64,000 nt of DNA from Alphaproteobacteria bacterium (GCA_965229645.1 OZ245893.1:448323-512322); one strand, 5' to 3'; counted from the first letter of the stretch, positions 10,190-61,658 are shown. The notes: generated by a model not told the origin, from the letters alone. Made by a program: numbers and translations.

Positions 10190-10194
10190 AAGGG

Positions 10195-25900: not shown

Positions 25901-26455
25901 ATGATTAGATCCGAAATTTTGACCGAACTGGCGCCCCTTATCCGCGATCACTTGGTGGTCTGCAACATCGGCTTGCCCAGCCAAGAAATGCACCAGATCG
26001 ACGACCAGCCGACCAATTTTTACATGCTCGGCACCATGGGCTTGGCTTCGTCCATCGGCTTCGGCTTGGCCCAAACCACGGACAAGAAGGTGCTGGTGAT
26101 CGACGGCGATGGCTCGGTTTTGACCAACCTGGGTACCCTGCCGACCATCGCCAACAACCCGACCAACAACTTCATTTTGCTGATTATCGACAACGGGTCC
26201 TACGGGTCCACGGGCGACCAGCCGACCTATGCAGGGGCCAAGACCAACTTGGCCGCGGTCGCGCGCGCGTGCGGATGCGACCAAGTCGTCGAGGTGCAGG
26301 ACGTCGAGACGCCCGCCGCCGTCGCCGCGGCTCTGGCGGGGGATGACATGACGATCATCGTCAGCAAGTGCGACAGCGGCAATGTCAAGGTGCCCGTCAT
26401 CCCCCTCGACCCCGTCGTCATTCGCCATCGCTTTATGGAGGCGGTCAAGGCCTAA
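25901..26455 (+). CDS. comE: Sulfopyruvate decarboxylase beta subunit-like protein (TPP-binding)
   Basis: GDGS…N TPP-binding motif (LVIDGDGSVLTNLG). It starts 3 nt after comD. Confidence 0.7.
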   Translation: MIRSEILTELAPLIRDHLVVCNIGLPSQEMHQIDDQPTNFYMLGTMGLASSIGFGLAQTTDKKVLVIDGDGSVLTNLGTLPTIANNPTNNFILLIIDNGSYGSTGDQPTYAGAKTNLAAVARACGCDQVVEVQDVETPAAVAAALAGDDMTIIVSKCDSGNVKVPVIPLDPVVIRHRFMEAVKA

Positions 26456-26461
26456 GGCCTC

Positions 26462-27571
26462 GTGTTTCGGCCACAGCTTTACGACTACCACAGCCTAAGG
26501 GCGCGGGCCAAGGCGCGCCTGCCCTGGATGGTGTTCGACTATATTGACGGCGCGGCGGGACAGGGCGGCGGCGTCGCGGCCAATCGCGCCGCCTTTGCCG
26601 CTATCCCGCTGCGCCCAAGGGTCCTGGTGGACGTGCGGCACCGCGACCTCAGCTGCCAGGTACTGGGCCAACCTTGCAGCGTTCCCTTTGGCATCAGCCC
26701 CATGGGTCTGTGCAACTTGGCCCATCCGCAGGCCGACCGCGCCTTCGCTGCCTTTGCCGTGCGCACGGGCGCGCCCGTCGGGCTTTCCACGTTCGGCTCG
26801 ACCGACCTCGAAACCATGGCCCAGTGGTCCGAGGGCAAGGCCTGGTTTCAACTCTACTTCAGCGGCGACGGCAGCGCGTCCCTGGCGCTGGCCGCGCGCG
26901 CGCAGGCGGCGGGGTATCAGACGCTGGTCCTGACCTTGGACGTGCCCGAGGTCGGCTACCGCCCGCGTGAGTTGCGCCACGGTTTCAAAATGCCGTTTCG
27001 GATCGGTCTCTCGCAAGCCTTCGACTTCGCGTGCCATCCGCGCTGGTCCGTGCGTGCGCTCTTAAGCGGCCCGCCGCGTTTGGCCAACTTCGACACGCTA
27101 GGCTACGATCTGGACCGCACCGAAAGCCGCGCAGGGGCCGACTGGACCTTCGTGCAAAAACTGCGCGAGCTCTGGACCGGCAAGCTGGTAGCCAAGGGTA
27201 TAACGCACGCAGGCGATGCCAAAGCCCTGGTGCAGGCTGGGGTCGATGCCATCCAAGTTTCCAGCCACGGCAGTCGACAAGTTGAAGGCGCAGTGCCGCC
27301 AATTTCAGCGTTGCAAGAGGTTCGCCAAGCACTGGGGCCGACTTTCCCCCTGTTCTACGATAGCGGCCTGCAATCAGGGGAGGACGTGGTCCGCGCCTAC
27401 TTGGCGGGCGCGGACTTCGTCTTCCTAGGCCGCTACGCCCAATTCGCCGCCGCCGCAGGCGGGGCTAGGGCGGTTCGTAACGCAACGGACTTCTTATGCG
27501 AACAGATCAGCAATACCCTGGCGCAACTCGGCAAAACATCAGTCTGCGAGTTGAGCGGGGTCAAGGCATGA
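26462..27571 (+). CDS. FMN-dependent alpha-hydroxy-acid dehydrogenase (L-lactate dehydrogenase LldD-like, candidate sulfolactate dehydrogenase)
   Basis: 369 aa, LldD/glycolate-oxidase family (…SSHGSRQVEG…). Confidence 0.8.
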   Translation: MFRPQLYDYHSLRARAKARLPWMVFDYIDGAAGQGGGVAANRAAFAAIPLRPRVLVDVRHRDLSCQVLGQPCSVPFGISPMGLCNLAHPQADRAFAAFAVRTGAPVGLSTFGSTDLETMAQWSEGKAWFQLYFSGDGSASLALAARAQAAGYQTLVLTLDVPEVGYRPRELRHGFKMPFRIGLSQAFDFACHPRWSVRALLSGPPRLANFDTLGYDLDRTESRAGADWTFVQKLRELWTGKLVAKGITHAGDAKALVQAGVDAIQVSSHGSRQVEGAVPPISALQEVRQALGPTFPLFYDSGLQSGEDVVRAYLAGADFVFLGRYAQFAAAAGGARAVRNATDFLCEQISNTLAQLGKTSVCELSGVKA

Positions 27572-27871
27572 GCGCCAGCGGCCATTCTTGTCAAACTCAG
27601 ATGGGTGGCGTTGCACCCATTTGGCGATCCGTGAGAACAAGCGTGCCTGATCGAGAGGTTTTTTGCGACCAAGCAAGACCTACGGGAAACCGAGCGACAT
27701 CTTATCATTCGATTTGGCGGCATGATGGTGGCGGGGACTGTTGTTGCGGTGCCTTGGTTGAACTTCTCTAGTCTAAGAGCGTACCTTGTTTCAGGGCTTA
27801 TATCACGGAAGGATGACCGAACCCACCTACCGACGAGCGTCCAAGCGCCAAACCCGAGCCTAGACGTCCGC

Positions 27872-27974
27872 ACCCGACGTCATCCAGCGCGGAGCGGAGC
27901 GAAGTCGCAGGATCCAGCACCGATCGTTTCGGGAAGTCCAGACGAAACGACCTTTGTGCGGTGCCAAACGACGG
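27872..27974. repeat. Interspersed repeat of about 100 bp, copy A
   Basis: It shares a CGTCATCCAGCGCGGAGCGGAGCGAAGTCGCAGGATCCAGCAC core and flanking similarity with 48965-49064. Confidence 0.4.
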
Positions 27975-28212
27975 CGGCATGATAGTGACGGGAATTATTC
28001 GTGTGGGGGCCTTATTTAGGCTTCTGTATCCCAAGGCCTCATCTTGTTTTAGGGCTATGACTAGCAACTCAACTTTACACAAAGTCCTTCAGAATAAGGA
28101 CCCGCAAGGACTTTGACGCACGAATCCCCGCGTCATACCAGCGGCAAGAATGAGCGACTCTTAATTTTAGGTATTCCCAAGGTGGTCCAATTCTGATTCG
28201 ATGCAGGGATCA

Positions 28213-28343
28213 TTGAATGAGACCTCAGCATAAATCAAAGAACCAAAAACTGACCGCAATATGTAGTATCCATTCGCCTCAATTAGCCCAATATATTTTA
28301 GCTGTGAGATTTGAAATCGAATTATGCTGAGGTCTCTGAATAG
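28213..28343. repeat. MITE-like 131-bp element with terminal inverted repeats
   Basis: TGAATGAGACCTCAGCATAA … TTATGCTGAGGTCTCTGAATA gives a perfect 15-bp inverted repeat, about 20 bp if two mismatches are allowed, bracketing 90 bp of AT-rich DNA directly upstream of IS630 orfA. Confidence 0.5.
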
Positions 28344-28352
28344 GAGTATGAT

Positions 28353-28865
28353 ATGAGTGCAGCGGTTCCCATTACTCGTCTTGACAAGAGTGCCGATGAT
28401 TTGCGGGCGCTGGCACGCAAGGCGAAGAACGGTCGAGTTGGCGGGCGATTGCTTTCCATAGCACTTGTTTTGGAAGGTGTGTCTCGTAAGTACGCAGCAG
28501 AAAGTAACGGCATGGACCGACAGTCGCTACGTGATTGGATCCATCGCTATAATGACGAAGGCGTTGGGGGTTTGGAAGATCGCAAAGGCGCAGGAGCCAA
28601 GCCCCGCATCAAAGGATCTGAGATGGACCAACTTGCAGCTTGGGTAAAGGCTGGTCCTGACGTTGAGCGCGATGGCGTTGTACGTTGGCGACGCAAAGAC
28701 TTAGCAGATCGGGTCAAACAAGAAATGAAGATCGAGGTGAGTGAGCGCACGGTGGGGAACTACTTGGACAAGCTGGGTTTTCGGCGTATGACAGTGCGGC
28801 CCGAACACCCCAAAACCGACAAAGAGGCCCAGGAGGCGCTAAAAAAAACTTCTCAAAGATCATAA
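28353..28865 (+). CDS. IS630-family transposase orfA (HTH/winged-helix part)
   Basis: 170 aa, and LSIALVLEGVSRKYAAESNGMDRQSLRDWIHRYNDEG is a helix-turn-helix. Confidence 0.8.
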   Translation: MSAAVPITRLDKSADDLRALARKAKNGRVGGRLLSIALVLEGVSRKYAAESNGMDRQSLRDWIHRYNDEGVGGLEDRKGAGAKPRIKGSEMDQLAAWVKAGPDVERDGVVRWRRKDLADRVKQEMKIEVSERTVGNYLDKLGFRRMTVRPEHPKTDKEAQEALKKTSQRS

Positions 28866-28873
28866 GGGATATT

Positions 28874-29416
28874 TTGCCTGACTACGCCCGCGAAAAAACC
28901 CTTGAGGTTTGGTTTCAGGATGAGGCGCGCGTAGGTCAGAAGGGCACAGTGACGCGTATTTGGGCGCCTCAGGGCACTCGCCCGCGTGCGCCGCGTGATA
29001 CACGTTATCAATGGAGCTATATCTTCGGGGCTGCCTGTCCCGAACGGGGTGTCGCCGCGGGGCTGGTCTTGCCTTATGTGAACACCGAGGCGATGAACTT
29101 GCACTTAGCGGAAATCTCCAAAACGGTTGCTACTGGTGCGCATGCGATCCTTGTGCTTGATTGCGCAGGTTGGCATCTGGCTAACAAACTAGAGATACCC
29201 CAGAATATCACGCTCCTAAAATTGCCGCCCTACTCGCCAGAGCTCAACCCTATGGAAAACGTCTGGCAATATCTGCGAGCAAACAAACTCGCACTATCGG
29301 TATTCGACACATACGAGGAAATTCTTCAAAAGTGCGCTGAGGCATGGAACTTCTTTGCCAATGACCCAAGGCGCATAATGTCGGTGACTAAACGCGATTG
29401 GGCAACGGTCATTTAA
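28874..29416 (+). CDS. IS630-family transposase orfB (DDE domain)
   Basis: WFQDEARVGQKGT…LVLDCAGWH…YSPELNPMENVW is an IS630/Tc1-like DDE region. Confidence 0.8.
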   Translation: MPDYAREKTLEVWFQDEARVGQKGTVTRIWAPQGTRPRAPRDTRYQWSYIFGAACPERGVAAGLVLPYVNTEAMNLHLAEISKTVATGAHAILVLDCAGWHLANKLEIPQNITLLKLPPYSPELNPMENVWQYLRANKLALSVFDTYEEILQKCAEAWNFFANDPRRIMSVTKRDWATVI

Positions 29417-29698
29417 TTTTTCCGTTGGTATGAGTGGATCACTGGGATCAAGGGTCACCTCGAAGGGTAGTTTTCGCGTTCGCACTATTTGGCGATAGAG
29501 CATGGAGATGACTTGCGACGGCTTAAGGCCCAACTCGGCTATCACCGCATCGCCTTGTTCCTTGAGATCGGCATCGATGCGCGAACTAACGCGCGCTTCT
29601 TGGGGCACGGCAGTAGTCTTTATGGGTTAGAGGCAATATCAATCGTTTGTACGCCAAACGTCACCCAAATCAAGACATCTTTTCAGGGCAATCGCACT

Positions 29699-30799
29699 TC
29701 AAAATCCTTGAATGAGTGTCTTTAAGAACTCGTTGCTCCATCCCGCGCGTTTGAACTTGACGCGATTTGAGGACTTGTCGTTGTTAGCCTTTATGATGTT
29801 CAAAGCAATGCGCCGTAAGGCAGCAAAGTTTGCAGGTGCGTTGCCCTTTCTCGCACGATGGAAGTCCTCGTTCATCACGACATCTAGGGACCAATGTAAA
29901 CTATTTTCAATCTGCCAATGACCACGGATTAGATTGGCAGCCTCCTGAGCGGTGCTCTGCTTTGACATAAGATAAGTCCGCTCTTCTTGGCTAACTTTCC
30001 CATCAACTTCACGCTTATACAACACATGGACGAAAGCAGAAAGGTGGGGCCAATCATGGGTTTGTGTCACATAATCTGGGACCTCATAAACTCTATAGCG
30101 GCGCTCCTCAATACGGCCATGGTCAGCATCCGTGGAACTGTACTCATTCGCCCAAATCGTTTGTGGGTCTGCAATAAAGGTCTGAATATCGTTCATCAAC
30201 CCCTTCTGGTTGGCCTTGAGTTGTATGCAATACTCTGCACCTTGAGCGGCGATCAGTTCACAGGTCTCGCGTTGGCAGTGCAGGGCGTCGGCGGTAAGAG
30301 TGATACCACGAATATCAAGCATCTGGATCAACTCACGCAGCGCTAAAATCTCACTGCCTGCCTTAGCGCTTTGAGTAATACCAAGACTTAACCGCGCCCC
30401 ATGGGCAAACGCTGTGACCAGGTTAAGGTTTGACTTCTTGGCAGCTTTATCAAAGCTCCCACGCAACTCCTTACCATCAATAGCAATGGCCTTTTGCTTT
30501 TCATCAGTGTTTGCAAAATCAGCTTGAAACTTTTCAAAAAACGCCTGAAAACTGTCTGGCTTCATCAACTGAAACAGGCGTGAAAATGCGTCGTGACTGG
30601 GTAAACCCAGAGGAAGTTCCAGAAACTCGCGCAAAAAATCCTCCTTGCTGCGAGCAAAATGTTCCATGTCCACTGCCGTTTCACCCCCACATAGGGCGCA
30701 CAAAAGGCTTATCGTCATCAAGTCGCAGAACTTGTGACGTGGGGCATTGCTCGTGCGAGGATCATCTAACTCGTTGAAATAATTGACTAGTAAGGGCAT
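29699..30799 (-). CDS. ISAs1-family transposase (H-repeat-associated type)
   Basis: The N-terminal FNELDDPR motif and 366-aa length are typical of ISAs1. Confidence 0.8.
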   Translation of the reverse strand: MPLLVNYFNELDDPRTSNAPRHKFCDLMTISLLCALCGGETAVDMEHFARSKEDFLREFLELPLGLPSHDAFSRLFQLMKPDSFQAFFEKFQADFANTDEKQKAIAIDGKELRGSFDKAAKKSNLNLVTAFAHGARLSLGITQSAKAGSEILALRELIQMLDIRGITLTADALHCQRETCELIAAQGAEYCIQLKANQKGLMNDIQTFIADPQTIWANEYSSTDADHGRIEERRYRVYEVPDYVTQTHDWPHLSAFVHVLYKREVDGKVSQEERTYLMSKQSTAQEAANLIRGHWQIENSLHWSLDVVMNEDFHRARKGNAPANFAALRRIALNIIKANNDKSSNRVKFKRAGWSNEFLKTLIQGF

Positions 30800-30885
30800 G
30801 TGTCGGCTCCATCTCGTGATGGAGACCGCCGAGTCCCTTTAGAACAAATTGTCAACTCTCAAGTGCGATTCCCCTGGACATCTTT

Positions 30886-31020
30886 TTCACCCGTGGAGAA
30901 GTGAATTTCAGCGCCGACCTCATTGATTGCTCTGCGATCTGTGCCCGCAAAAGCGTCGCGCACGAGCAGGTCGCCGAGGGCGCAGTAAGTGTGTTCGTTG
31001 GCCAGTTTGGCGCGGGTGTC
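30886..31020 (-). pseudogene. Diverged fragment of a glycerate kinase 3' end (last 45 or so codons), copy C
   Basis: The minus-strand translation MTLKADTRAKLANEHTYCALGDLLVRDAFAGT aligns to the C-terminus of the intact kinase at 40134 (MTLNAETRAQLANNDAYPALQTLGGLIVRGATGT). Confidence 0.55.
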
Positions 31021-31107
31021 GGCCTTGAGGGTCATCTTCTTGAAGGCGGAACGTAAAGCGCCAACGCGGCTTTGCTCAGAATCTATTTGGCGAGGCGCTG
31101 ATCTCAG

Positions 31108-31389
31108 CTAACTGACAGCCTGATGGATGATTGATTTTATCAGCGTTTGGTAGGGCACGCCGTCGCGAAACGCCTGCGCCTTCACACGTGCAAGGTCGCT
31201 ATGGGCGATGCGGATCGAAATTTTCTCGCTTCCTTCATTGAGCCTGTTGCGCGCCGCTTCCTGCATTTGGGCTTTGAGTTCAGGGGTGAGAAGGCTCTCC
31301 CTGGGCACATGGGCGTCGGATTCAAGGGCCTCTACCAACTCTCGCTCCTCCTCATCGAGGGTGTTCTCTACATAGGGGTCTTTTTTCAT
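31108..31389 (-). CDS. brnA: BrnA antitoxin (RHH-type)
   Basis: 93 aa. It overlaps brnT by 4 bp (ATGA) and has a typical BrnA C-terminal ribbon-helix-helix. Confidence 0.75.
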   Translation of the reverse strand: MKKDPYVENTLDEEERELVEALESDAHVPRESLLTPELKAQMQEAARNRLNEGSEKISIRIAHSDLARVKAQAFRDGVPYQTLIKSIIHQAVS

Positions 31390-31679
31390 GAGGCGTCCTT
31401 CTTCAAGTAAAAGGCCGTTTCGTTACGGCTGGGAAATACGGTTTTGAGAAACCAGGTACCGTCATCCTCCATCACGAAAGGAACGACGTAGGCGTAGTTT
31501 TCGATGTTGAGGATAGCGAGGCGCTGATGGGCACTTGTTGGGTGAGGTCGCACGTCAAGGATTCGACCATCAGCAATCGCGACGACGCAGTCGGCAAAAG
31601 TCACGCCATTACGAGAGGTTTCCGCTTGAAGTTTCTTCTCCTTTTCACTGCTCCAGCGGAACTTTTGCATGTCTTCCAT
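31386..31679 (-). CDS. brnT: BrnT toxin (DUF497 ribonuclease)
   Basis: 97 aa, with DUF497-like motifs (WSSEKEKKLQAE and TFADCV). Confidence 0.8.
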   Translation of the reverse strand: MEDMQKFRWSSEKEKKLQAETSRNGVTFADCVVAIADGRILDVRPHPTSAHQRLAILNIENYAYVVPFVMEDDGTWFLKTVFPSRNETAFYLKKDAS

Positions 31680-31745
31680 TGTATGGACAAACGAGTCGTT
31701 GTCAAAGGAATTTCAAGAAATGGGTTCAGATTGAGGCGGGTCACT

Positions 31746-32115
31746 CAACCTCACCCCCGCACGAAAATCTGTAGGTCCGCCACGTTGGTTCCCGTTGCGC
31801 CGCGCACGATGAGGCCGCCGAGGGCTTTTCGGGCAGGGTAGGCGTTGTTGTTGGTCAGTTGGGCACGGGTGTCAGCAGTGAGGTCATGGTATGATCGACT
31901 AGGTCGCCCGCAGCGTCGTTGGGGCCGTCGATGCCAGCGGTGCTGCCGCTCAAGAAGGCTCAGGGGTCTGGCAGATCCTCTAGGCAGGTCAGGACATGGG
32001 GGGCGAGATCCTGACTAAGGCCGTCCATGCCCGTGCCGCGCAAGATAAGGGTGGTTTCGCCGCCTCAGACCAGCGTGGGCGGGTCGGTGCTGCGGATATG
32101 ATCGGCGATTTGGCC
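31746..32115 (-). pseudogene. Decayed copy of the glycerate kinase 3' end (about 120 codons), copy B
   Basis: It is about 80% identical to 40134-40500 and contains frameshifts and an in-frame stop. Confidence 0.75.
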
Positions 32116-32213
32116 GTTGGTAGTACTTGCGCGCAACTCCCTTTGTGAGCAAGCGGGCAACGGCTCGTCGTCCTCTGGACTCTGCGGGGCCATTCCCTTG
32201 GCGTGAATAGATT

Positions 32214-34001
32214 GTGGATTTTGTTCCAGTTACTCCCTATTCGGAATCTATGCACCTGAAGGATCATAGATGGTATGGCTTTTGGACCATGGGCTCAATC
32301 CCGCACGCGCATGATTTGGGTGCGCTAAGGTTCGCCGATCTTTGCAAGCCTGCCGCCGATTGGCCCCATGGCGACGAGGCTGCAGAGGATCCAAGACGCC
32401 AAGAACGACCGAGTTTTAGACAGGTCGCCCCGTGGCTGCCTGGTCAAATGGACAAAACCCTTCTTGCCGATCCCCAGCTCGCGGCCACGCCCCTATTTGG
32501 TACCTTAAAACCTCAATCGGTTGCGGGAGATATGTTGCCAGAAATGAGGGCGATTTTGGGGGGGAACAAGCCAGATACCTGCAAAGTCTATGAACTCAGC
32601 AGCAAGACCATTGCTTTGCTCAACAGGGGCAGAATTTACCGTCCAACTGTGGGGGAAGACGATCGAGTTACCTATGCCTTGGGCTTCAAGCTTTCTAGGG
32701 CCGCTCACTACAGGCTGTTTGGCGACGCCTCTTCGCCCAACCCTTGGCAAGTTTTGAGTAAGAGGAACTGGCAAATCGTCCAAGAACGCCAACGGCTTGA
32801 CGAGGTGCGGGTTCAAAATCACGAAAATTTGCCAAGGCCTTCCACGGTTATTCCTTTGCAAATCCATCGGCTCGTCGTCTGGCACTTTGCTGAGGGCCGC
32901 CTCATTGCCGTCCCCGAGATCGGCATCGCGGACGATGGAGACGAGGGCCACGCATACCCGTTCGACCTTGCGTGGGAATTGGCAGATGGACTGTCGCGCT
33001 TAGGCGAACTTGTGTGGCTTGGGTATGGCGCAGAACAAAGCGGCGTCGCCTATGCTGAGGGCCAAGATCTTGTTCCAATGTGGATTGAGACTGGCGAGCT
33101 AAGTCTCGGCAAAATTCTGTCCCGCCTTTTGCTAGGTGAGTATGCAGTCTATCAACGTGATCGCCGCACATTTGGCTATAGCTATGCCCGTCTTAAAGAT
33201 ACGAATACAAAGGGGCAGCAAAGCGAACTAAGGCTTGCCGCAGTCCGTGCAGCCCTAAGCCTCACATCCGACTACGATGTGGCCGACCCTGTGCCGTTTG
33301 CTGGGATTGCGCAACCGTTTCAAAACATGGTTCATGCCGCTGGGTTGGAAGGGGCCTGTACGCTGGTTGCCGATCACTCGGACGGACGCAACTTGAGCTT
33401 TCTCGACGACTTTCGCACCAATAGGATCGAACAGGAGTATCGTCTTTTGTTGGTTCTGGCAATTTATCAACGTTATGAAGGGCTTCGTTTGTTGCGGAAA
33501 ATCAGTAAGGGGGTTGAGGGGGAAAAGCGTGATATCCACCAGCGCTTGGCCGAGTTGGACGCGCTCTATAACCAGGTTGCAAACTTGCAAGCCCGCTATC
33601 GCGATCATCAACTGAGCGCGGTGGGTACGCAGTTACTGTTCAACCGTCTTGTCCGAACCCAGTTGGGCCTGGACGAGATCGAGGTCCAACTCAACCAAGA
33701 CATGAGGCTGGTCTTTGAGCGGGAACAAGCCGCCGCTGCCGCCGAAAATGCCCGCGAAGACGCGAAAATGATGCGTGCGCAAGGCAAAATGCAAGCCTGG
33801 GCCAAATGGTTCGGCGCTTTGAGCGCAGGCTTTCTTGCCTTTGTTACAACGCTGCAGATTGGGACTTTGACCGATCAACTCCCCTGGTTGCCCAGGGATG
33901 AGTGGCTTATCCTCCTTGCGGTCGGGGTAGCTCTGTTCGCGGCCTTTGCAGCTTATGTAGCGGGACATGGACTCACGAAACGTGCCCCTGACGTTTCTTA
34001 G
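32214..34001 (+). CDS. Hypothetical 595-aa protein with a central coiled-coil region and two C-terminal TM helices. It is the only unassigned cargo gene of the Cas13a island.
   Basis: The ORF has a GTG start at 32214 (an alternative ATG is at 32250). It is lower in GC than the genome. The C-terminus WAKWFGALSAGFLAFVTTLQIG…WLILLAVGVALFAAFAAYVAG forms two TM helices. It ends 70 bp before the terminal repeat of array 1. Confidence 0.6.
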   Translation: MDFVPVTPYSESMHLKDHRWYGFWTMGSIPHAHDLGALRFADLCKPAADWPHGDEAAEDPRRQERPSFRQVAPWLPGQMDKTLLADPQLAATPLFGTLKPQSVAGDMLPEMRAILGGNKPDTCKVYELSSKTIALLNRGRIYRPTVGEDDRVTYALGFKLSRAAHYRLFGDASSPNPWQVLSKRNWQIVQERQRLDEVRVQNHENLPRPSTVIPLQIHRLVVWHFAEGRLIAVPEIGIADDGDEGHAYPFDLAWELADGLSRLGELVWLGYGAEQSGVAYAEGQDLVPMWIETGELSLGKILSRLLLGEYAVYQRDRRTFGYSYARLKDTNTKGQQSELRLAAVRAALSLTSDYDVADPVPFAGIAQPFQNMVHAAGLEGACTLVADHSDGRNLSFLDDFRTNRIEQEYRLLLVLAIYQRYEGLRLLRKISKGVEGEKRDIHQRLAELDALYNQVANLQARYRDHQLSAVGTQLLFNRLVRTQLGLDEIEVQLNQDMRLVFEREQAAAAAENAREDAKMMRAQGKMQAWAKWFGALSAGFLAFVTTLQIGTLTDQLPWLPRDEWLILLAVGVALFAAFAAYVAGHGLTKRAPDVS

Positions 34002-34071
34002 GCCTGCAATAAACCAGTTCATCAAAACGCGGTGAGGACTTCCAAAACCGCACCCCCACGCCAGGCGGCGC

Positions 34072-35427
34072 GAAGGGGACGGTTTTCAAATCGCCAGGGT
34101 TGGGACCGTCGCCTGGGGTGAATCACTGCTCGAGGAGGGTGCAGGCGGCTTTCAAATAGCCGTGGTTGGGACCGGCTGTTGCTTCCATGACACCGTGGCA
34201 CTGGGTGCAGGCGGCTTTCAAATAGCCGTGGTTGGGACCGTCTGCGGGCACGGGCTCCCAGATCATCGAGGTGCAGGCGGCTTTCAAATAGCCGTGGTTG
34301 GGACCCGCAGACGGTTCGCTGTACGACGTCTACCGGGTGCAGGCGGCTTTCAAATAGCCGTGGTTGGGACCACAAGCACTTTCGATCCGAAATACAAACC
34401 AGGTGCAGGCGGCTTTCAAATAGCCGTGGTTGGGACCTATCCCAACGGGGATTATACGGGCGACTTTGGTGCAGGCGGCTTTCAAATAGCCGTGGTTGGG
34501 ACCGGTGGACCGTGAGGACAAGGGTAAGCAGACGGTGCAGGCGGCTTTCAAATAGCCGTGGTTGGGACCGAAATCCCAGGCGGTGATACAAATTCCGAAG
34601 GTGCAGGCGGCTTTCAAATAGCCGTGGTTGGGACCGCGGATCCTGTACGTTCACGATGTTGCCCCGGTGCAGGCGGCTTTCAAATAGCCGTGGTTGGGAC
34701 CGATCAACGGGCAAAACGTTTTTACGGTTGGGGTGCAGGCGGCTTTCAAATAGCCGTGGTTGGGACTGGCATCTTTCCTTGCTCATCTAGCTTCCTGGGT
34801 GCAGGCGGCTTTCAAATAGCCGTGGTTGGGACCTCAACTTCAAGCAATACTCTGGATTTGCAGGGTGCAGGCGGCTTTCAAATAGCCGTGGTTGGGACCC
34901 GGCTTCTGGTGTAATAGGAATTTTGCTCGGGTGCAGGCGGCTTTCAAATAGCCGTGGTTGGGACCCGATGCTGTAGGCGCCCTTCTGGTCGAGTAGGTGC
35001 AGGCGGCTTTCAAATAGCCGTGGTTGGGACCCCAAGGCTGCGTCGGCGTTCATGCCGAACAGGTGCAGGCGGCTTTCAAATAGCCGTGGTTGGGACCTTG
35101 AACGCGATCCAGATCAAACGCCGATGGGGTGCAGGCGGCTTTCAAATAGCCGTGGTTGGGACCGGGTCGCTCGGTCATGGCCAAGCAGCGCCAGGTGCAG
35201 GCGGCTTTCAAATAGCCGTGGTTGGGACCGCCCGAAGGCTCGCCGAGACGGGCAGGGTTGGTGCAGGCGGCTTTCAAATAGCCGTGGTTGGGACCCATTG
35301 TACCACATGCGGTACACGCCTGGGAGGTGCAGGCGGCTTTCAAATAGCCGTGGTTGGGACCGACTGTGACGGGCGACGTTGCAACCGACTTGGTGCAGGC
35401 GGCTTTCAAATAGCCGTGGTTGGGACC
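34072..35427 (-). CRISPR. CRISPR array 1 with 21 repeats of 36 nt (one degenerate at 34072-34107) and 20 spacers of uniform 30 nt
   Basis: The plus-strand repeat is GGTGCAGGCGGCTTTCAAATAGCCGTGGTTGGGACC, with an exact 66-bp period from 34138 to 35427. Repeat 10 ends in T. The degenerate repeat is at the cas13a-distal end. Confidence 0.95.
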
Positions 35428-35515
35428 AGGATTGTTGCAAGTCATTAAAAATGCTTCGGAATCCTGGGTGAGTCGGATTAGGAATTACCTTGATTGGCAC
35501 TTTGTCAAGACTGGA
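35428..35515 (-). promoter_or_regulatory. Putative leader/promoter of array 1 (AT-richer, between the cas13a stop and the first repeat)
   Basis: Inferred from the array polarity and AT content. Confidence 0.4.
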
Positions 35516-38500
35516 TCAGTCATTTTTTCCTTGTCCATAAGCAAGTTTCTCTAGGGTTTTCAAGAACGTAGTGGAAACGCGGTCCACCTCGAACTTTGCC
35601 TCCGTAAAGGAAGCAAGATGCCAGACGGGAACTGCGCTCAGCCCACCTTCTTGAGGTTTATGGAGGCGGTGCTCATCGCAAGTTTCCCATCTGACTTCAA
35701 TACCTTCATCGAGCATGAGATCCTTGATTGCCTTTGATACGGCGTTGCGCAATTTGCGATCATAGGTCATGAGCCTGCGGACGTCGTTGATAAGGCTGGT
35801 GAGATTGAGCCCCGGCTTCAAGATTGTAAAGTGCGCGAAGGCGTTGCGAATTTTGGCCTGTTCCTCGCCAAAATACTTGTTGTAAAGAGATTGATTGTCT
35901 TGCGTGAGGTTTTCCAACACAAGTGGGCCGCGTTTGAAGCTGGGTCGGTCGCTCAATTTCTTGGCGAATTCATACAGATCCTGGTTTCCATGGCCCTGTT
36001 GACGTTGATAGAGCGCTAAGGCGACGAAAAGCGCATCCCGCTCCCACGTTGCGCTAAAATCGATGAGGCGAGAGACCAGTCGCATGAGCAAAATATGAAG
36101 GCGTGTCATGTCGCTGAGCCGCACCCGTTCCGCTAAGAACTTAAATTTGTTTAGCGCCTCCGTGATCTTTTGATACTCGGCGGTTTCTTCTGCATCCAGG
36201 TGATTTTTCTTCGACTTAACGATTTTATTGTGAAGATCGTGCTTCTTCTTCTCAAAACCCGCAACACGAGGTAAGTCACGCAAGTAGCTGGACACCTCAG
36301 CTTCGGAAATTTTGCTGGTCGCGTGCAGGTTTTGTAGGAGGGGCAAGGTGCCAAAGCGCAAAATTTGTCGTAAGCCAGTTTTGAGACCTTCAACGCGTCG
36401 TTCCTCTGCGGCCTTCGCACCAACGGACAAATCTTGCTGCGGGGCAAAGACCCGCTGGAAATGGCCCCGATCTTCAAAAAGGTCCGCCACGTCGGCCAAA
36501 CCGCCCGACGTTTCAAGGATGTTGACCATGTGCGCGCCAGCCATTTTTCCGTAGAGCAGACAAAGATCGCGCAGTTTGCGAGCGTAGTCGCTGTGCTCAT
36601 CGGGACGCGTCTCTTTGGTTTCCAGAACGCGGGCCTTGACGAACTGAGTCATGAGTCGGCTGGTATCCTGCACTGGCACCAAGTAGAGAAACACGTAAAA
36701 CAAGGCCTCCCAATCTTCGAGATCTCGATCTAGACCAGCGTCTTCAAAGGCGGGGGGATGCGCGACATATGTTCGTTTCTCCAGTCGGCCGCGCGCGAGC
36801 CATTGGAAGGGTTTGCCTTGCGGCGACTCTAGGAATTGGGCGAAGAGCAGGGCGAAGAAATCACATTTCAAGTCCTCGATCGCGTGAGAGTTCTTTCGTG
36901 CTTTCTTTCTGTCGGCCACGTAGGTTCGATTCTGCCGCGTTTCGGCGGCGACAACTTGGGTCAGTTGATCGAACCATTCTTGGAGATTCTTGCCAGGATG
37001 CAGTTGCGGGACTTGGGTCAAGCGCGACTCAACTAGGTCCGCGAAGGGCCCCGTGTTGTTCATGGCCTTGGCACGCGCGGTCGCCTCTCTAATTACTTGG
37101 TCGGCCGCATCGGCGAACTTTGACGTGCCGTTGTTTTCTATCAGCCAAACCCGAAAGGCAGAATTGTAGATCAGTTGCAAAGCACCGAAATGACAGGTCG
37201 CCGCTTCGTCATTTTTTGTTACCGTACTTATCTTATCGGGGAACTGCGATCGGGTGTCGTCTTTTGGGAAATGGCCTTTAAGGTTGTGATTGCGATGCAG
37301 GATCCGCCCAAATCGAGGGATCAGCAAATCGCGATCGGGCTCGAGCAGTGAGGCCTTGAACAGGTCCTCAACCTCTCTATGGCCAGGAACAAACCACGGC
37401 ACCTTTAGGGCCATGATCACATCCTTAGATCGCTGCTTCAGGCCCCGCATGTCGGTTTCTAGCCGTGCGCGCGCGAAGGCGAGCAAGTCAGAAAAGCCCT
37501 CGACGTCGTTCCAATTCCCCGCAACTTCAAGTTTGTGAAGGCTGGCCTTGAGCTTCGCGGCGTCGCCAAAATGAAAGACTTGAGTGCGCAATCGCGCCGC
37601 CACCCTCAGTAGTGCGAACAACCGTTGCTTTGCCAGTTGCTCATCTTCGGTCGCAAAGACCGAGTCATCCCCGTGGGAGTCACCGCCAGCCTCGTTCAAA
37701 GGATCGCCAAAGACAAGTTTGGCCATGCGGTTATAGTGCGGCAAACCCACGAAACACTTCGTGGTCGCCTTTATTCCGACCTCATTCGAAAGAATGTCGT
37801 CGTCCACATAAGCCGTTTCAGGGCCGAAAATTTCACCTTTTGGATCGGCCCAGTATTTTAAGGTGCGGCTAGCTTGCGAAATGGCGGTGCGCCAGAATCG
37901 TTCGAAGGCTTCGGAGTGCTTAAGCGCCGTGAGCGCAGACGACGTTTTTAGGGCCTGCATGCAGGCGGGCATCTGCTCTGCCGAGTGCGCGCGTCGGGCC
38001 GCGTGGTAGATATTACGGCCTTCGCGGATCAAGGCGGTCATGGTGGCGTTGCCTTGCTTGCGGTTTAGGGCACGCACCAGCGACGCCATGTCGGCGGGCA
38101 AGCGATAGGAAAGCGGTGTGCGCGTGTTTTGGAGGTGCCGAGTGGACTTGCGTACCTTGTTGGCGTAGAATTTTTTGACCTGGTTGTGCAGGTCAAGCAA
38201 GTCGCGATCGGACGAAGTGAACTTTTGGCCTGGCTTTTTTAAGGGCGCAAAGTGGTCCGATAAGATCTTCCCAAAAAGTGTCGTGCCAACAGGCTCGTTC
38301 TGACTTTCGCGCCTGCGCACCTCTGAAAAAATATGGGCGGCTACGTTGGCGTACGTCCCTTGCTGATAGGCCTTAAGGCGCGGCTCGGACAGCTCCAAGC
38401 TCGGGCGCTCTGTGTTTTGGGCCGCGGTCCAAAGGTTGGAGGTCCTAATGCTATTGGCCCGGTGCCAAATCAATCCGTGACCAGATTTTTTTTGACCCGA

Positions 38501-39016
38501 GGCCGAGACTTTCGCGGTGAACAGGTGGGCGTCGATGTTTTGGGCAATCTGCTTGTAGTTGGGGTTTCCTTGCGCGTCTTGCGCCCAGAGGGCTGTCTTG
38601 AGGCGTCCATAAATTCGATCAGGCTGAGCGCCCGCAGGGGCCCTGTCCCTTAAGGCCCTCAAGTCCTCCTCGGCCGTTGGAAAGTCCGCGTAGGGATGCA
38701 GCTTCGCCCGCCAAAATTCGAACTTGGCGCCGACGTTCTTACGGCTGATAAGTTCCCACACGGCCTGGCCCAACTGCTCGCGCCGTTCGTAGCGCTCAAC
38801 AGACATGAGGCGCAGGTTCTTTTCTTTGGTGAGGACCTTGTCCAGAATTCCGATATATTGCCGCATCAGAATTTTGGCCTCTTTCGATATGAGGGTATGG
38901 AGGTCAGCGTCTCGGTTCTGCTCAGACACAGTGGGCCGCGTTACCTCGACGCGACGCTCCAATTTTGAACCGTCCCAATGCGTTTTACTGTTGCCGATTG
39001 ATGAGATGATTTTCAT
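35516..39016 (-). CDS. cas13a: Cas13a (C2c2), the type VI-A CRISPR RNA-guided RNase
   Basis: 1166 aa, flanked on both sides by CRISPR arrays. It has two R-x4-H HEPN motifs, RTQVFH at aa 476-481 and RNAFAH at aa 1057-1062, a placement that matches Cas13a. It is lower in GC than the flanking DNA. Confidence 0.85.
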   Translation of the reverse strand: MKIISSIGNSKTHWDGSKLERRVEVTRPTVSEQNRDADLHTLISKEAKILMRQYIGILDKVLTKEKNLRLMSVERYERREQLGQAVWELISRKNVGAKFEFWRAKLHPYADFPTAEEDLRALRDRAPAGAQPDRIYGRLKTALWAQDAQGNPNYKQIAQNIDAHLFTAKVSASGQKKSGHGLIWHRANSIRTSNLWTAAQNTERPSLELSEPRLKAYQQGTYANVAAHIFSEVRRRESQNEPVGTTLFGKILSDHFAPLKKPGQKFTSSDRDLLDLHNQVKKFYANKVRKSTRHLQNTRTPLSYRLPADMASLVRALNRKQGNATMTALIREGRNIYHAARRAHSAEQMPACMQALKTSSALTALKHSEAFERFWRTAISQASRTLKYWADPKGEIFGPETAYVDDDILSNEVGIKATTKCFVGLPHYNRMAKLVFGDPLNEAGGDSHGDDSVFATEDEQLAKQRLFALLRVAARLRTQVFHFGDAAKLKASLHKLEVAGNWNDVEGFSDLLAFARARLETDMRGLKQRSKDVIMALKVPWFVPGHREVEDLFKASLLEPDRDLLIPRFGRILHRNHNLKGHFPKDDTRSQFPDKISTVTKNDEAATCHFGALQLIYNSAFRVWLIENNGTSKFADAADQVIREATARAKAMNNTGPFADLVESRLTQVPQLHPGKNLQEWFDQLTQVVAAETRQNRTYVADRKKARKNSHAIEDLKCDFFALLFAQFLESPQGKPFQWLARGRLEKRTYVAHPPAFEDAGLDRDLEDWEALFYVFLYLVPVQDTSRLMTQFVKARVLETKETRPDEHSDYARKLRDLCLLYGKMAGAHMVNILETSGGLADVADLFEDRGHFQRVFAPQQDLSVGAKAAEERRVEGLKTGLRQILRFGTLPLLQNLHATSKISEAEVSSYLRDLPRVAGFEKKKHDLHNKIVKSKKNHLDAEETAEYQKITEALNKFKFLAERVRLSDMTRLHILLMRLVSRLIDFSATWERDALFVALALYQRQQGHGNQDLYEFAKKLSDRPSFKRGPLVLENLTQDNQSLYNKYFGEEQAKIRNAFAHFTILKPGLNLTSLINDVRRLMTYDRKLRNAVSKAIKDLMLDEGIEVRWETCDEHRLHKPQEGGLSAVPVWHLASFTEAKFEVDRVSTTFLKTLEKLAYGQGKND

Positions 39017-39166
39017 GCCGAACCTCAGCCAAAGTACCTAAGTGCCAATTCACGGACGTTGCCTCGTGAACCTCAGGTCTTTGGGGTTAGAGAACCGCTG
39101 TTACAAAAACAAGGGCTTCGATAGAGTCTCAACGCACGAGTACGAGGGCCGTCGCAACGGGCTGCT

Positions 39167-39894
39167 GGGTGTTACTGTAGCCGATGTTTGAACCGAGGTC
39201 GTCCTCGAGTCATCCCAAAGTTGGGGGTGTTGGCGGCTGTCACTGTAGCCGATGTTTTAACCCACGGACAGCTGAAAGAAGGAGGTACCTATCAAGGGTT
39301 TTGGCGGCTGTCACTGTAGCCGATGTTTTAACCCACGGACAGCTGAAAGAAGGAGGTACCTATCAAGGGTTTTGGCGGCTGTCACTGTAGCCGATGTTTT
39401 AACCCAGACCCCGAAAACGTCAATGTAGTTGAAGTCGGTGTTGGCGGCTGTCACTGTAGCCGATGTTTTAACCTCCTACAAAATTCCGGGGGGGAGTCTA
39501 ACTCTCACGGTGTTGGCGGCTGTCACTGTAGCCGATGTTTTAACCCAGTTCGATGGACTGGTGGGCGGATCCGCCAGGGTGTTGGCGGCTGTCACTGTAG
39601 CCGATGTTTTAACCGAAGGTTTTGTAGCCAGCTTTACCCCGTATAGTGGGTGTTGGCGGCTGTCACTGTAGCCGATGTTTTAACCGACGAGGAATACATC
39701 CTCGTCATGACACCCTGGTGTTGGCGGCTGTCACTGTAGCCGATGTTTTAACCAAAATAAGAAGGCTGACGTAAAAGTCAGACTTCGGTGTTGGCGGCTG
39801 TCACTGTAGCCGATGTTTTAACCTGGGCTACGGCTTGTTTGTGCCGCACAACGACGCGGTGTTGGCGGCTGTCACTGTAGCCGATGTTTTAACC
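39167..39894 (-). CRISPR. CRISPR array 2 with 11 repeats of 37 nt (one truncated terminal repeat and two G-to-T variants) and 10 spacers of 31-35 nt
   Basis: The plus-strand repeat is GGTGTTGGCGGCTGTCACTGTAGCCGATGTTTTAACC. Repeats 2 and 3 read GGTTTTGG…. Spacers 1 and 2 are identical. The truncated repeat (39167-39194) lies next to cas13a. Confidence 0.95.
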
Positions 39895-40133
39895 TCACGT
39901 CTTCTAGCCCCGCTCTGGGCTTGAAGAAAGTACTTTTTTTCTGAACCAAACCCGAAACGGTGACCCAAACGCCATCTCATACGAAGAGAAAGTGGCTGTA
40001 GGACGTGGCAAAATCCTTGTCCAGCTTAGCCTTTGCAGAAAATCTGAACCAAAATCGTCGATTTCCCACGCCAACAGGGTCAATATGTCCAGTATTCTGG
40101 GGTCAGGGATACGAGAACGCAGAGCCGCCATTT
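39895..40133 (-). promoter_or_regulatory. Putative leader of array 2
   Basis: It lies at the non-degenerate end of the array and contains an A/T run (GTACTTTTTTTCTG). Confidence 0.4.
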
Positions 40134-41366
40134 TCACCCCCGCACAAAAATCTGCAGGTCCGCCACGTTGGTTCCCGTTGCGCCGCGTACGATGAGGCCG
40201 CCGAGGGTTTGGAGGGCGGGGTAGGCGTCGTTGTTGGCCAGTTGGGCGCGGGTTTCGGCGTTCAGGGTCATGGTATGATCGACCAAGCCGCCAGCGGCGT
40301 CGGTGGGGCCGTCGATGCCGTCGGTGCCGCCGCTTAGGAAGGCCCAGGGGCCTGGCAGGTTTTCTAGGTGGGTTATGACATGGAGCGCGAGCTCCTGATT
40401 GCGGCCGCCTTTGCCTGTGCCCTGCACGGTGACGGTGGTTTCGCCGCCCCAGAGCAGCGTGGGGGCAGGGGTGTTGCGGATGTCTTGGGCGATTTGGGCG
40501 GCGGCGGCTTGGACGTCGCCCGTAAGGGCCGCGTTCATGATCTTGGCCTGGCCTGCGCTGGCCATGGCGCGCAGGCTTTGGGCGTTGGAGCCGATCAAGG
40601 CGTTGTCGGCGGGCGGGAGTTCGGTTCGGTTCTTGGGCAGGCGCGGCGTCGCGGCGGTAAGCGCGTCTTGGACGGCGCGCGGCAGGCGCGGCCAGATCTG
40701 CGCCTTGTGTAAAGCGGTCACGGCGTCTTGAGCCGTGCCTAAGGGCGGCGTGGTGGGGCCGCTGGCGACGGCGCGCAGATCATCGCCGATGACGTCGGAG
40801 AGGATCAGCGCGCGCACCTGGGCGGGGGCGGCGAGGGCGCTGAGGCCGCCGCCCTTCAGCTGCGAGAGGTTTTGCCGAACCAAGTTGATGGCCTCAATCG
40901 GCATCCCAGCGGCCAGCATAAGATCGTTGGTGGCTTGCTTGTCGTCCAGGGTCAGGCCAGGGAGCGGGCAGGGCAGGAGCGCGGAGCCCCCACCCGAGAG
41001 CAGCAGCACGATCTCTTCGTCCGCGCCCGCGCGCTGGGCAAGGTCCTTGACCTGCTGCGCCGCCGCTAGGCCCGCCGCGTCGGGGCGGGGATGGCCCGCG
41101 CCCAGGACCTGCGCGCCCGCGACGGGCTGGACGTTTCCGTAGGAGGTCACGGCCAGGGCCGATCTTGGGGTTACAAACTCAAGGGCCGCGCGCATCATGG
41201 CGCAGGCGGCCTTGCCGACGGCGATCAGGTGCGGGTGGGCGGCGGGTGGGTTGGCCTTAAGCGCGCGGCGAACGGCAGCGGCGGGGTCGGCGGCGTCGAT
41301 GCCGACCTGGAACAGGTCTAAGACGCAGGATCTTAAATCCTTCATTTCGCTAGGGAGGTCAGGCAC
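40134..41366 (-). CDS. Glycerate kinase (MOFRL/GckA-TtuD family)
   Basis: 410 aa, with MOFRL-family motifs (GKAACAMM…LLSGGGSALL). The start may instead be the MKDL methionine at 41345. Confidence 0.85.
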   Translation of the reverse strand: MPDLPSEMKDLRSCVLDLFQVGIDAADPAAAVRRALKANPPAAHPHLIAVGKAACAMMRAALEFVTPRSALAVTSYGNVQPVAGAQVLGAGHPRPDAAGLAAAQQVKDLAQRAGADEEIVLLLSGGGSALLPCPLPGLTLDDKQATNDLMLAAGMPIEAINLVRQNLSQLKGGGLSALAAPAQVRALILSDVIGDDLRAVASGPTTPPLGTAQDAVTALHKAQIWPRLPRAVQDALTAATPRLPKNRTELPPADNALIGSNAQSLRAMASAGQAKIMNAALTGDVQAAAAQIAQDIRNTPAPTLLWGGETTVTVQGTGKGGRNQELALHVITHLENLPGPWAFLSGGTDGIDGPTDAAGGLVDHTMTLNAETRAQLANNDAYPALQTLGGLIVRGATGTNVADLQIFVRG

Positions 41367-42380
41367 CGTCCTTCAGCGTCGAACAGATGAATGTGCTGCG
41401 GATCGAAGGTCAGCTTGACGGCATCGCCCTCGCGCAGCCCATCGCTCAAATGGCCGCGCGCGACCAGGCTGTCGCCGCCCTCGGTTTCGACATGGTAAAA
41501 GCTATCTGCGCCCAAGTGTTCGGTGACCGAAATGGTGCCCGCCAGGCCTTTGCCGCGCTTGCTGATCTTCATATGCTCGGGCCGGATGCCCAGGTGCTTC
41601 GGCGTGCCGTCCTTGACCTCGCGTTCAGTCGTGCCGCCAGCGTCGGTCATGGGCAAGATGTTCATTTTCGGCGAACCGATGAAGGTGGCGACGAACAGGT
41701 TGCCTGGATTGGTATAGAGCGCGAGCGGCGTGCCGATCTGCTCGATTTTGCCCGCTGAAAACACCACGATGCGGTTGGCGAGCGTCATGGCTTCGACCTG
41801 GTCGTGGGTCACGTAGATCATGGTCGCTTGCAGTTGACGGTGCAGCTTGGCGATTTGCACGCGCATTTCCACCCGTAGCGCCGCGTCCAAATTCGACAAG
41901 GGCTCGTCGAACAGGAACGCCTTGGGGTTGCGGACGATGCAGCGGCCAATGGCGACCCTTTGCCGTTGCCCGCCGCTCAGTTCCTTGGGCTTGCGGTCCA
42001 AGAGCGCGGTGAGTTGCAGGACCTCCGCCGCCCGATCCACCTCCGCATTTGCCGCCGCCTTGCCCATGCCCGCGACGCGCAAGGGAAAGGCCATGTTGTC
42101 GCGCACCGACTTGTGCGGATAGAGCGCATAAGACTGGAACACCATGGCAAGGCCGCGCTCAGCCGCCGTCAGGCTCGTAACATCTTCCCCGTCGAGGGCG
42201 ATGGTGCCCGCGCTGCTTTCCTCCAGCCCCGCGATCAGGCGCAGCATGGTGGACTTGCCGCAGCCCGACGGGCCGACGAAGACCACGAACTCCTTGTCGT
42301 CGATGTCCAGATCAACGCCCTTGATCACGCTGAGGTTGCCGAAGGCTTTTTTGAGGTTTGAGATTTGGATGCGCGCCATG
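41342..42380 (-). CDS. Sugar ABC transporter ATP-binding protein (MalK/UgpC-like)
   Basis: The conserved start MARIQISNLKKAFG…GPSGCGKST is at 42380, with LSGGQRQRVAIGR, and the ORF is 346 aa. The track ORF extends 130 codons further upstream. Confidence 0.85.
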
Positions 42381-61220: not shown

Positions 61221-61311
61221 TGGTGAGATGGCCGAGTGGCTTAAGGCGCACGCCTGGAACGCGTGTATAGGGGAAACTCTATCGTGGGTTCGAATCCCAC
61301 TCTCACCGCCA
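61221..61311 (+). tRNA. tRNA-Ser (GGA)
   Basis: GGTGAGA acceptor stem pairing with TCTCACC-G-CCA, a long variable arm, a TΨC arm GGTTCGAATCC and the anticodon loop CTGGAAC. Confidence 0.85.
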
Positions 61312-61422
61312 TCGAGGTAAAGCGCCCATTCAAGCGCGAAGTACCCTTTATGGGGGTGACGGGTCAGAGACGTGAGGACACCCAGTTCGGTGCAAATCAG
61401 GAGGGGAACCAAGAACGATAGT

Positions 61423-61647
61423 ATGAGTCTTGGCGCTGACCTATTTGTGGGTACCGCGTGGACTTTTGCCAGTCTGAATTTTGATGGCCAGCTCGATTCT
61501 CCTTTCATTAAGGAATCTGCTTCCAAAGTTTTGGAAATCCCATTCGGCAGTGTGGGGCAGATAAAGTTGGTCAACATATTCTGCTGGCTGAATGAGTATG
61601 CAGTATCTGGCGACGGAACAGAAAACCAACTAAAAACAACGCCTTAG
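61423..61647 (+). CDS. Small hypothetical protein at the start of the tRNA-Ser island
   Basis: A 74-aa ORF ending 11 bp before the GmrSD start. It has no motif, so confidence is low. Confidence 0.3.
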   Translation: MSLGADLFVGTAWTFASLNFDGQLDSPFIKESASKVLEIPFGSVGQIKLVNIFCWLNEYAVSGDGTENQLKTTP

Positions 61648-61658
61648 GAGAAATAGTT

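Follow-up and report, generated by a model that had tools for sequence, protein, structure and literature searches.

A divergent Cas13a between two co-oriented CRISPR arrays in an alphaproteobacterial genomic island

Introduction

Cas13a enzymes underlie RNA-detection and RNA-knockdown tools. In their alphaproteobacterial branch, the protein of Rhodobacter capsulatus (RcCas13a) is, to our knowledge, the only member that has been characterised both biochemically and structurally. A stretch of 64,000 nucleotides (nt) from the genome of an Alphaproteobacteria bacterium (GCA_965229645.1, OZ245893.1:448323-512322; this whole stretch is called the window below) carries on its minus strand an open reading frame (ORF) of 1166 amino acids (aa). 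[quoted passage not shown] The locus therefore raises three questions: is the protein a genuine Cas13a, do both arrays belong to it, and can the whole still be regarded as a working system when no other cas gene lies nearby?

We find that the protein is a genuine, divergent Cas13a of the RcCas13a-like alphaproteobacterial clade. The locus is very probably a stand-alone CRISPR-Cas system of type VI-A that is intact, with one Cas13a and two co-oriented arrays working in the manner of RcCas13a. It is an added member of a well-known family, with a stand-alone layout that is already familiar, and not a new type of system.

Results

The 1166-aa protein is a Cas13a

The gene was delimited by ORF, profile and fold evidence:

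35516..39016, minus strand: cas13a coding sequence, 1166 aa, ATG start

As the first-pass annotation had stated, this ORF is the largest within an island of low guanine-plus-cytosine (GC) content. Its product is recognised by Cas13a models along practically its entire length: the NCBIfam equivalog NF038188 (cas13A_C2c2) aligned to aa 1-1158 with profile positions 1-1191 of 1192 and scored 491 bits (E 9e-147; trusted cutoff 150 bits), and the PADLOC Cas13a model PDLC02152 matched with E 2.8e-135. The installed copy of Pfam gave no Cas13a match for the protein; the precomputed Pfam labels of its relatives are Cas13a_endoribonuclease and Cas13a_C, which are newer families (PF28192, PF28350).

Among solved structures, the best HMMER match was 7os0_A, the R. 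capsulatus Cas13a (E 1.9e-63), whereas the matches to Lbu- and Lse-type Cas13a chains were limited to the C-terminal ~270 residues (E ~1e-13 to 1e-15). An AlphaFold2 model, computed from a 78-sequence family alignment, reached a mean predicted local distance difference test (pLDDT) score of 87.6 and a predicted template-modelling (pTM) score of 0.87. When Foldseek was run with this model against the PDB, 7os0 again came first (E 9.5e-45, template-modelling (TM) scores of 0.79/0.82 across the whole chain), followed by the Lse, Lbu, Lba and Lsh Cas13a structures and then by Cas13d, and the top 26 entries were all Cas13. The full-length alignment to 7os0 is collinear and gives the domain order N-terminal domain, Helical-1, HEPN1, Helical-2 and HEPN2, with boundaries that are not at residue level. 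Assignment to another Cas13 subtype was ruled out, the TM score to Cas13d being only ~0.25. Both the profile search and the structure comparison that the annotation had proposed as checks thus came out in favour of Cas13a.

The gene was also compared with its copy in a metagenomic locus from ENA (L006), which encodes a 96%-identical Cas13a and has the same synteny and both arrays. Between the window and L006, the ratio of nonsynonymous to synonymous substitution rates (dN/dS) was 0.34 for cas13a, with a synonymous rate (dS) of 0.056. This ratio is close to that of the glycerate kinase gene beside the locus (0.40), and cas13a is therefore under purifying selection.

Catalytic and processing residues

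Three groups of residues were placed by alignment to RcCas13a, the last of them in the predicted site for processing of precursor CRISPR RNA (pre-crRNA):

37571..37588, minus strand: HEPN1 motif R477-T-Q-V-F-H482, aligned to RcCas13a R464/H469
35831..35848, minus strand: HEPN2 motif R1057-N-A-F-A-H1062, aligned to RcCas13a R1052/H1057 and to the Lbu-type RNYIAH
35669..35758, minus strand: predicted pre-crRNA processing site R1087, N1091 and H1116 in HEPN2, aligned to RcCas13a R1085, N1089 and H1113

In RcCas13a, the HEPN tetrad is formed by R464/H469 and R1052/H1057, and mutagenesis has shown that pre-crRNA processing depends on R1085, N1089 and H1113 (PMC8776769). The mapping of the HEPN1 residues was read off the full-length HMMER alignment to 7os0. 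R477, H482, R1057 and H1062 are invariant in the 78 full-length family members aligned (78/78), as are R1087 and N1091, while H1116 is present in 75 of them. Judged by these alignments, all seven functional residues of RcCas13a are kept here, three of them as a predicted processing site.

The annotation had counted exactly two R-x4-H motifs in the protein and had taken them for the catalytic HEPN dyads. There are in fact five, starting at aa 35, 289, 477, 748 and 1057, and ~3 would be expected by chance from the composition; a count of motifs therefore fails to single out the right two, although the right two had been picked. These are the only conserved pairs, and they align to the R/H pairs of RcCas13a and of the Lbu type. 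A functional role for the motifs at aa 35, 289 and 748 was ruled out, their columns being variable among the 78 members. RNAFAH lies at aa 1057-1062, as given; RTQVFH had been placed at aa 476-481 and occupies aa 477-482.

Relationship to known Cas13a proteins and breadth of the family

Our comparison with R. capsulatus draws on the structure 7os0 of Kick et al. 2022 (PMC8776769) and on the SB1003 locus of Kretz et al. 2024 (PMC11089165). RcCas13a is the closest solved structure in both sequence and fold and carries the HEPN tetrad and the R/N/H processing triad at equivalent positions, yet its identity to the protein described here is only ~23%. Moreover, RcCas13a has a cold-shock-like C-terminal domain of ~120 aa, called unique to it (PMC8776769), which is absent here (1166 aa against a chain of 1304 aa). 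The protein ends soon after HEPN2, and this domain is thus not found clade-wide.

The first-pass annotation had likened the protein to LbuCas13a (5xwy/5xwp), and part of this likeness stands: the lengths are nearly equal (1159 against 1166 aa), the HEPN2 motifs align (RNYIAH against RNAFAH), the processing helices align as YDRKLKNAV and YDRKLRNAV, and the two proteins share their overall fold (Foldseek E ~1e-17). It is looser than the likeness to RcCas13a, however, with an identity of 13-14%, TM scores of 0.41-0.59 and a sequence match confined to the C-terminal ~270 residues. LbuCas13a falls in a different Cas13a clade and has a shorter repeat, the stem of which is CCCC/GGGG.

Among 5.8 billion clusters, a word-indexed search returned only the protein itself, an ENA metagenomic protein (39% identity) and the Cas13a of Pararhizobium sp. 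IMCC3301 (28%). When 1.84 billion cluster representatives (50% identity) were searched exhaustively with phmmer, 499 matched at E <=1e-3, of which 243 reached E <=1e-30; the family matches are mostly full-length proteins with 28-35% identity, and the best reaches 41%. The nearest relative among ~15 billion proteins is only 39-41% identical. These searches show a large Cas13a family in which the protein's own branch is thinly sampled. The earlier placement in a sparsely sampled branch of the Rhodobacter type is borne out by the E values (2e-63 to RcCas13a against ~1e-15 to LbuCas13a) and by the distance of the nearest relative, with the addition that the wider family is not small.

That nearest relative, P0002 (1263 aa, ENA; loci L001-L004), aligns over its full length. 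Downstream of its gene lies an array with 30-nt spacers, whose 36-nt repeat has a CGGCU/AGCCG stem and the flank ACUGCACC; there is no upstream array. The Cas13a of Pararhizobium sp. IMCC3301 (WP_306267475.1, P0003) is also matched over its full length. No cas1 or cas2 was called near either gene, and the 595-aa protein that neighbours cas13a in the window (see below) has no relative encoded at either locus. At the Pararhizobium locus (L005, CP132336.1 896851-920543), Tandem Repeats Finder reported no array in the 10 kb to each side of cas13a, and this gene appears to be array-less.

Two co-oriented CRISPR arrays

Two arrays bracket cas13a, each with a putative leader:

34072..35427, minus strand: array A1, downstream of cas13a, 21 repeats of 36 nt (GGTCCCAACCACGGCTATTTGAAAGCCGCCTGCACC) and 20 spacers
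39158..39894, minus strand: array A2, upstream of cas13a, 11 repeats of 37 nt (GGTTAAAACATCGGCTACAGTGACAGCCGCCAACACC) and 10 spacers
35428..35515, minus strand: putative A1 leader, 88 nt, from the cas13a stop to the first repeat, placed by its position relative to the polarised spacer turnover
39895..40133, minus strand: putative A2 leader, from the glycerate kinase gene to the first repeat, placed by conservation between strains

Of the A1 repeats, 20 of 21 are identical or one base off, as are 10 of the 11 A2 repeats. All 20 A1 spacers measure exactly 30 nt, and those of A2 31-35 nt. In each array the last repeat is degenerate (9 mismatches in A1, 8 in A2) and stands at the 3' end on the cas13a strand, and both arrays are co-oriented with cas13a on the minus strand. 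The plus-strand sequence of the A2 repeats looks like intrinsic terminators, which argues weakly against transcription in that direction. A search of Rfam found no family in the island. A2 spacers 8 and 9 (39226-39404, repeats 8-10) are identical and each follows the same repeat variant (...CCAAAACC); they are a tandem duplication of one repeat-spacer unit.

On the cas13a strand, both repeats fold with the geometry that the annotation had described: a 5' flank of 11 nt is followed by a stem of 5 bp (CGGCU/AGCCG) with a loop of 7 nt in A1 and 8 nt in A2, and then by an 8-nt 3' flank ending CACC. The RcCas13a repeat, GCCUCACAUCA-CCGCC-AAGACGAC-GGCGG-ACUGAACC, has the layout 11/5/8/5/8 (Table S2 of PMC8776769), which is identical to that of A2 and differs from that of A1 by the 7-nt loop. 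The 3' flanks are related as well, that of RcCas13a quoted above corresponding to CCUGCACC in A1 and CCAACACC in A2. RcCas13a makes base-specific contacts with C-7, G-5 and C-1 of its CRISPR RNA (crRNA) (PMC8776769); C-7 and C-1 are present in both A1 and A2, and G-5 in A1. In a comparison of five repeat types from the clade (those of A1, A2, R. capsulatus, the P0002 locus and a Hyphomicrobiales metagenome-assembled genome), pairing of the stem holds in 25 of 25 cells, and both sides change in two of its five pairs. This covariation score was reached by 1 of 500 shuffles, a result which, with five sequences, is supportive and not conclusive.

An arrangement of two arrays around cas13a is also found in R. 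capsulatus, likewise an alphaproteobacterium (PMC11089165), and the one described here thus has a precedent. The R. capsulatus arrays hold 4 and 2 spacers, against 20 and 10 here, where the two repeats are clearly distinct.

Spacer turnover at the leader ends

We compared the arrays with those of L006 and of a third genome, L008, with ~87% nucleotide identity. The A2-type array of L006 has only its last spacer and the degenerate terminal repeat in common with the window, its other six spacers being different. In its A1-type array, the repeat is the same and there are 16 different 30-nt spacers, of which the final one, together with the terminal repeat, is a diverged homologue of that in the window. 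The oldest spacer is thus the only one shared in each array, at a cas13a dS of 0.056, which fits acquisition at the leader end after the strains split. Spacer turnover is polarised at the leader ends of both arrays. The A2-type array of L006 also includes one 'spacer' of 16 nt.

At the same chromosomal site, L008 lacks cas13a and A1; it has the 595-aa gene in truncated form, as well as an IS3 element. Its A2-type array carries 7 unique spacers behind a leader ~95% identical to that of the other two strains; indeed, the last 120 nt of the A2 leader are ~95% conserved in window, L006 and L008 despite different leader-side spacers. The IS3-family element (L008 11045-12840) abuts the eighth A2 repeat, which is cut mid-sequence at the end of the insertion sequence (IS), GGTTAAAACAT being followed directly by TGAACCG... 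The deletion has removed cas13a and A1, along with the 3' portion of the 595-aa gene, leaving an orphan array: the L008 lineage lost cas13a by an IS3-associated deletion.

Identity between the window and L006 is uneven. The left part of the island (26000-34000) is ~99% identical, with a dS of 0.005 for the 595-aa gene, whereas the segment from cas13a to the glycerate kinase gene (35500-42000) is only ~94% identical, which suggests a recombination breakpoint near A1.

These comparisons bear on whether A2 belongs to the system at all. A1 alone could be cognate to Cas13a, with A2 used or built by a different CRISPR-Cas system elsewhere and its adjacency merely historical. The spacer-length rules of the two arrays do differ: A1 spacers measure 30 nt in 20 of 20 cases (16 of 16 in L006), and A2-type spacers 31-37 nt over the three strains. 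The strict 66-nt period of A1, with its 30-nt spacers, recurs beside 39%- and 28%-identical Cas13a relatives, and an upstream array is missing from the loci of the nearest relatives. The persistence of A2 with seven unique spacers in L008, where cas13a is deleted, points the same way, but these spacers may predate the IS3 deletion. A2 also carries an A at position -5, where A1 and the R. capsulatus repeat have the G that RcCas13a contacts; its layout is nevertheless exactly the 11/5/8/5/8 of RcCas13a, the stem CGGCU/AGCCG and the terminal CACC are common to A1 and A2, and the native repeats of R. capsulatus, which also has two arrays round its cas13a, vary in their 3' flank. Finally, A2 adjoins cas13a, in the same orientation, in two strains. 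We hold a separate origin or use of A2 to be rather unlikely, and infer that the Cas13a encoded here uses both arrays.

No other cas gene in the window

Among the 49 larger ORFs of the window, Cas13a was the sole Cas family in the best 25 families listed by PADLOC (to E 3.5e-11), and 20 small ORFs, among them every small one lying in an intergenic gap, matched no Cas family. An adaptation module of cas1 and cas2 beside the effector was not found, with no match among the ORFs of the 64-kb window. The annotation had claimed that no other cas gene lies within 25 kb, and by these scans the claim extends to the full 64 kb. In this respect the locus differs from that of R. capsulatus, which has cas1 (PMC11089165). 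Type VI loci are often without Cas1/Cas2, and acquisition in trans has been shown for a type VI-B system (PMC11662929); the absence of cas1 and cas2 near the effector is normal, these genes being optional for type VI loci.

The island and its other genes

The island spans 27600-40133 and has a GC content of 0.54, its flanks having 0.625-0.635. The annotation had suggested horizontal acquisition of cas13a by a proteobacterial host. The low GC, the richness in IS elements and toxin-antitoxin genes and the variability between strains support this suggestion in part, but the island predates the split from the ~87%-identical relative. As to the host, the best named matches to the GlpK protein of the window, at 63-65% identity, all come from Alphaproteobacteria (Bauldia, Oceanibium, Hyphomicrobiaceae, Labrys, Rhodobacter and others).

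Beside A1 lies an orphan gene:

32214-34001, plus strand: orphan protein of 583-595 aa, convergent with A1, start codon probably at 32250

The C-terminal part of its product contains a coiled coil and one or two transmembrane helices; the protein matched nothing in Pfam, PADLOC or PHROG. Homologues were found only in its own lineage, and no relative was present at the other cas13a loci examined. Between the window and L006 its dN/dS is 0.24, from which we conclude that the ORF is a real gene. An AlphaFold2 model computed from two sequences had a pLDDT of 36 and was unusable. The protein could be an accessory of Cas13a or unrelated island cargo.

Four further features lie in the island:

28353-29416: IS630-type transposase in two ORFs
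29294-29608, minus strand: RelB-like antitoxin ORF, abutting the IS630-type transposase
29699-30799, minus strand: ISAs1-type DDE transposase, absent from L006
31108-31679, minus strand: BrnT/BrnA-like pair (CopG antitoxin)

Outside the island, we noted these features:

9812-11388, minus strand: PDC-M32B (125 aa, E 7e-27) and PDC-M32A (397 aa, E 2e-13), a candidate two-gene defence system by PADLOC, in a GC dip of 0.49
17277-18530, minus strand: major facilitator superfamily (MFS) transporter
61222-61311, plus strand: tRNA-Ser (GGA), followed by a 41%-GC segment that reaches the window end at 64000

The MFS transporter scored 270 bits against the Tet(A)/(B)/(C) efflux model; a tet gene label was rejected, the score being well below the curated cutoff of 475. 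An ORF in the 61222-64000 segment, which runs off the window, matches the models for HEC-06, Orf5, SspE N-terminal and a type IV restriction enzyme (E 1.6e-49). We read its product as GmrSD-like, and the segment looks like a second defence island at a tRNA gene.

Discussion

Points against an intact system

Several observations weigh against the reading of the locus as an intact system working like RcCas13a. Within HEPN1, T478 is off-consensus (among 78 family members, the residue is N in 51, H in 20 and T in 4). T790 stands where 72 of the 78 have His; the equivalent residue of RcCas13a, H788, contacts crRNA nucleotide C-1 (PMC8776769), and the Thr is common to the 1166-aa protein and to P0002. 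A795 stands where most family members have Trp. Judging from the sequence, these three substitutions could alter activity or the recognition of the crRNA 3' flank. To them must be added the A at -5 of A2 discussed above. A consensus scan brought up no convincing promoter for either leader, and the integrase that would act in trans is putative, the search for cas1 and cas2 having covered the 64-kb window. Moreover, the spacers found no targets: blastn of the window and L006 spacers against 50,697 phage records and of the window spacers against 72,556 plasmids gave no protospacer, and exact-core scans of IMG/VR with the spacers of all three strains gave no match. A metagenome scan with a two-repeat pattern yielded five chance matches, none of them with arrays or cas13a.

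Could the locus, then, be a decaying relic, with an impaired or unexpressed Cas13a and fossil arrays? The missing adaptation genes and protospacers and the unusual T478 and T790 are what such a relic might show; a sister lineage did lose cas13a to an IS element, and IS elements crowd the island. But the reading frame is intact over its full length, no catalytic or processing residue is lost, cas13a shows the dN/dS of 0.34 given above, and the repeats of both arrays are barely degraded outside the terminal ones. The leader-side spacers were wholly replaced at a cas13a dS of only 0.056, which requires recent spacer acquisition. Decay is in our view very improbable.

That the system serves mainly a purpose other than defence, for instance a stress-linked control of host transcripts, seems the least probable of the readings considered here. 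The promoters of cas13a and the arrays are induced by stress and in stationary phase in R. capsulatus (PMC11089165), and no spacer of the present locus matches a known phage or plasmid. In R. capsulatus, however, Cas13a levels had no effect on stress resistance, and growth was arrested only when protospacer RNA was present (PMC11089165). The window and L006 spacers also had no match in the window outside the arrays at <=5 mismatches, and the fast, strain-specific spacer turnover is the signature of an arms race, unlike fixed regulatory guides.

Proposed mechanism

We therefore keep to the reading of an intact, stand-alone type VI-A system, whose action can be sketched by analogy with RcCas13a. 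Each array would have its own leader, from which minus-strand transcription proceeds. Cas13a would bind the repeat hairpin and cut the pre-crRNA a few nt 5' of the stem by means of R1087, N1091 and H1116, giving a crRNA with a ~30-nt 5' handle and a 30-35-nt spacer. Pairing of the spacer with a phage or plasmid transcript would join R477/H482 and R1057/H1062 into a composite HEPN ribonuclease site, which would cleave the target and bystander RNAs and so arrest the growth of the infected cell. The ribonuclease and processing activities are attributed here from those of RcCas13a. New spacers would enter at the leader ends through a Cas1-Cas2 integrase encoded elsewhere in the genome, an adaptation in trans that we infer from the homologue and the literature.

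The different spacer lengths of A1 and A2 could reflect two integrases, or a single one with a leader- or repeat-dependent ruler. A bolder version, which we think distinctly unlikely, is that two adaptation machineries acting in trans (one with a strict 30-nt ruler for A1, the other with a loose ruler of 31-37 nt for A2 and still acquiring without cas13a) feed one Cas13a, and/or that the 595-aa membrane-anchored coiled-coil protein is a new accessory effector, comparable to Csx28 for Cas13b.

Significance

For Cas13a in general, the locus leaves our understanding unchanged and would not surprise a specialist. Its interest lies in its particulars. The protein is compact (1166 aa), intact and at most 41% identical to other proteins in the cluster searches, which makes it a candidate for ortholog mining, and the natural substitutions at a crRNA-contact position, together with two natural repeat variants, add to its practical interest. 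The comparison of three strains, moreover, offers a clean natural case of rapid, polarised spacer turnover without a local cas1-cas2, and thereby bears on the question of how type VI systems acquire their spacers.

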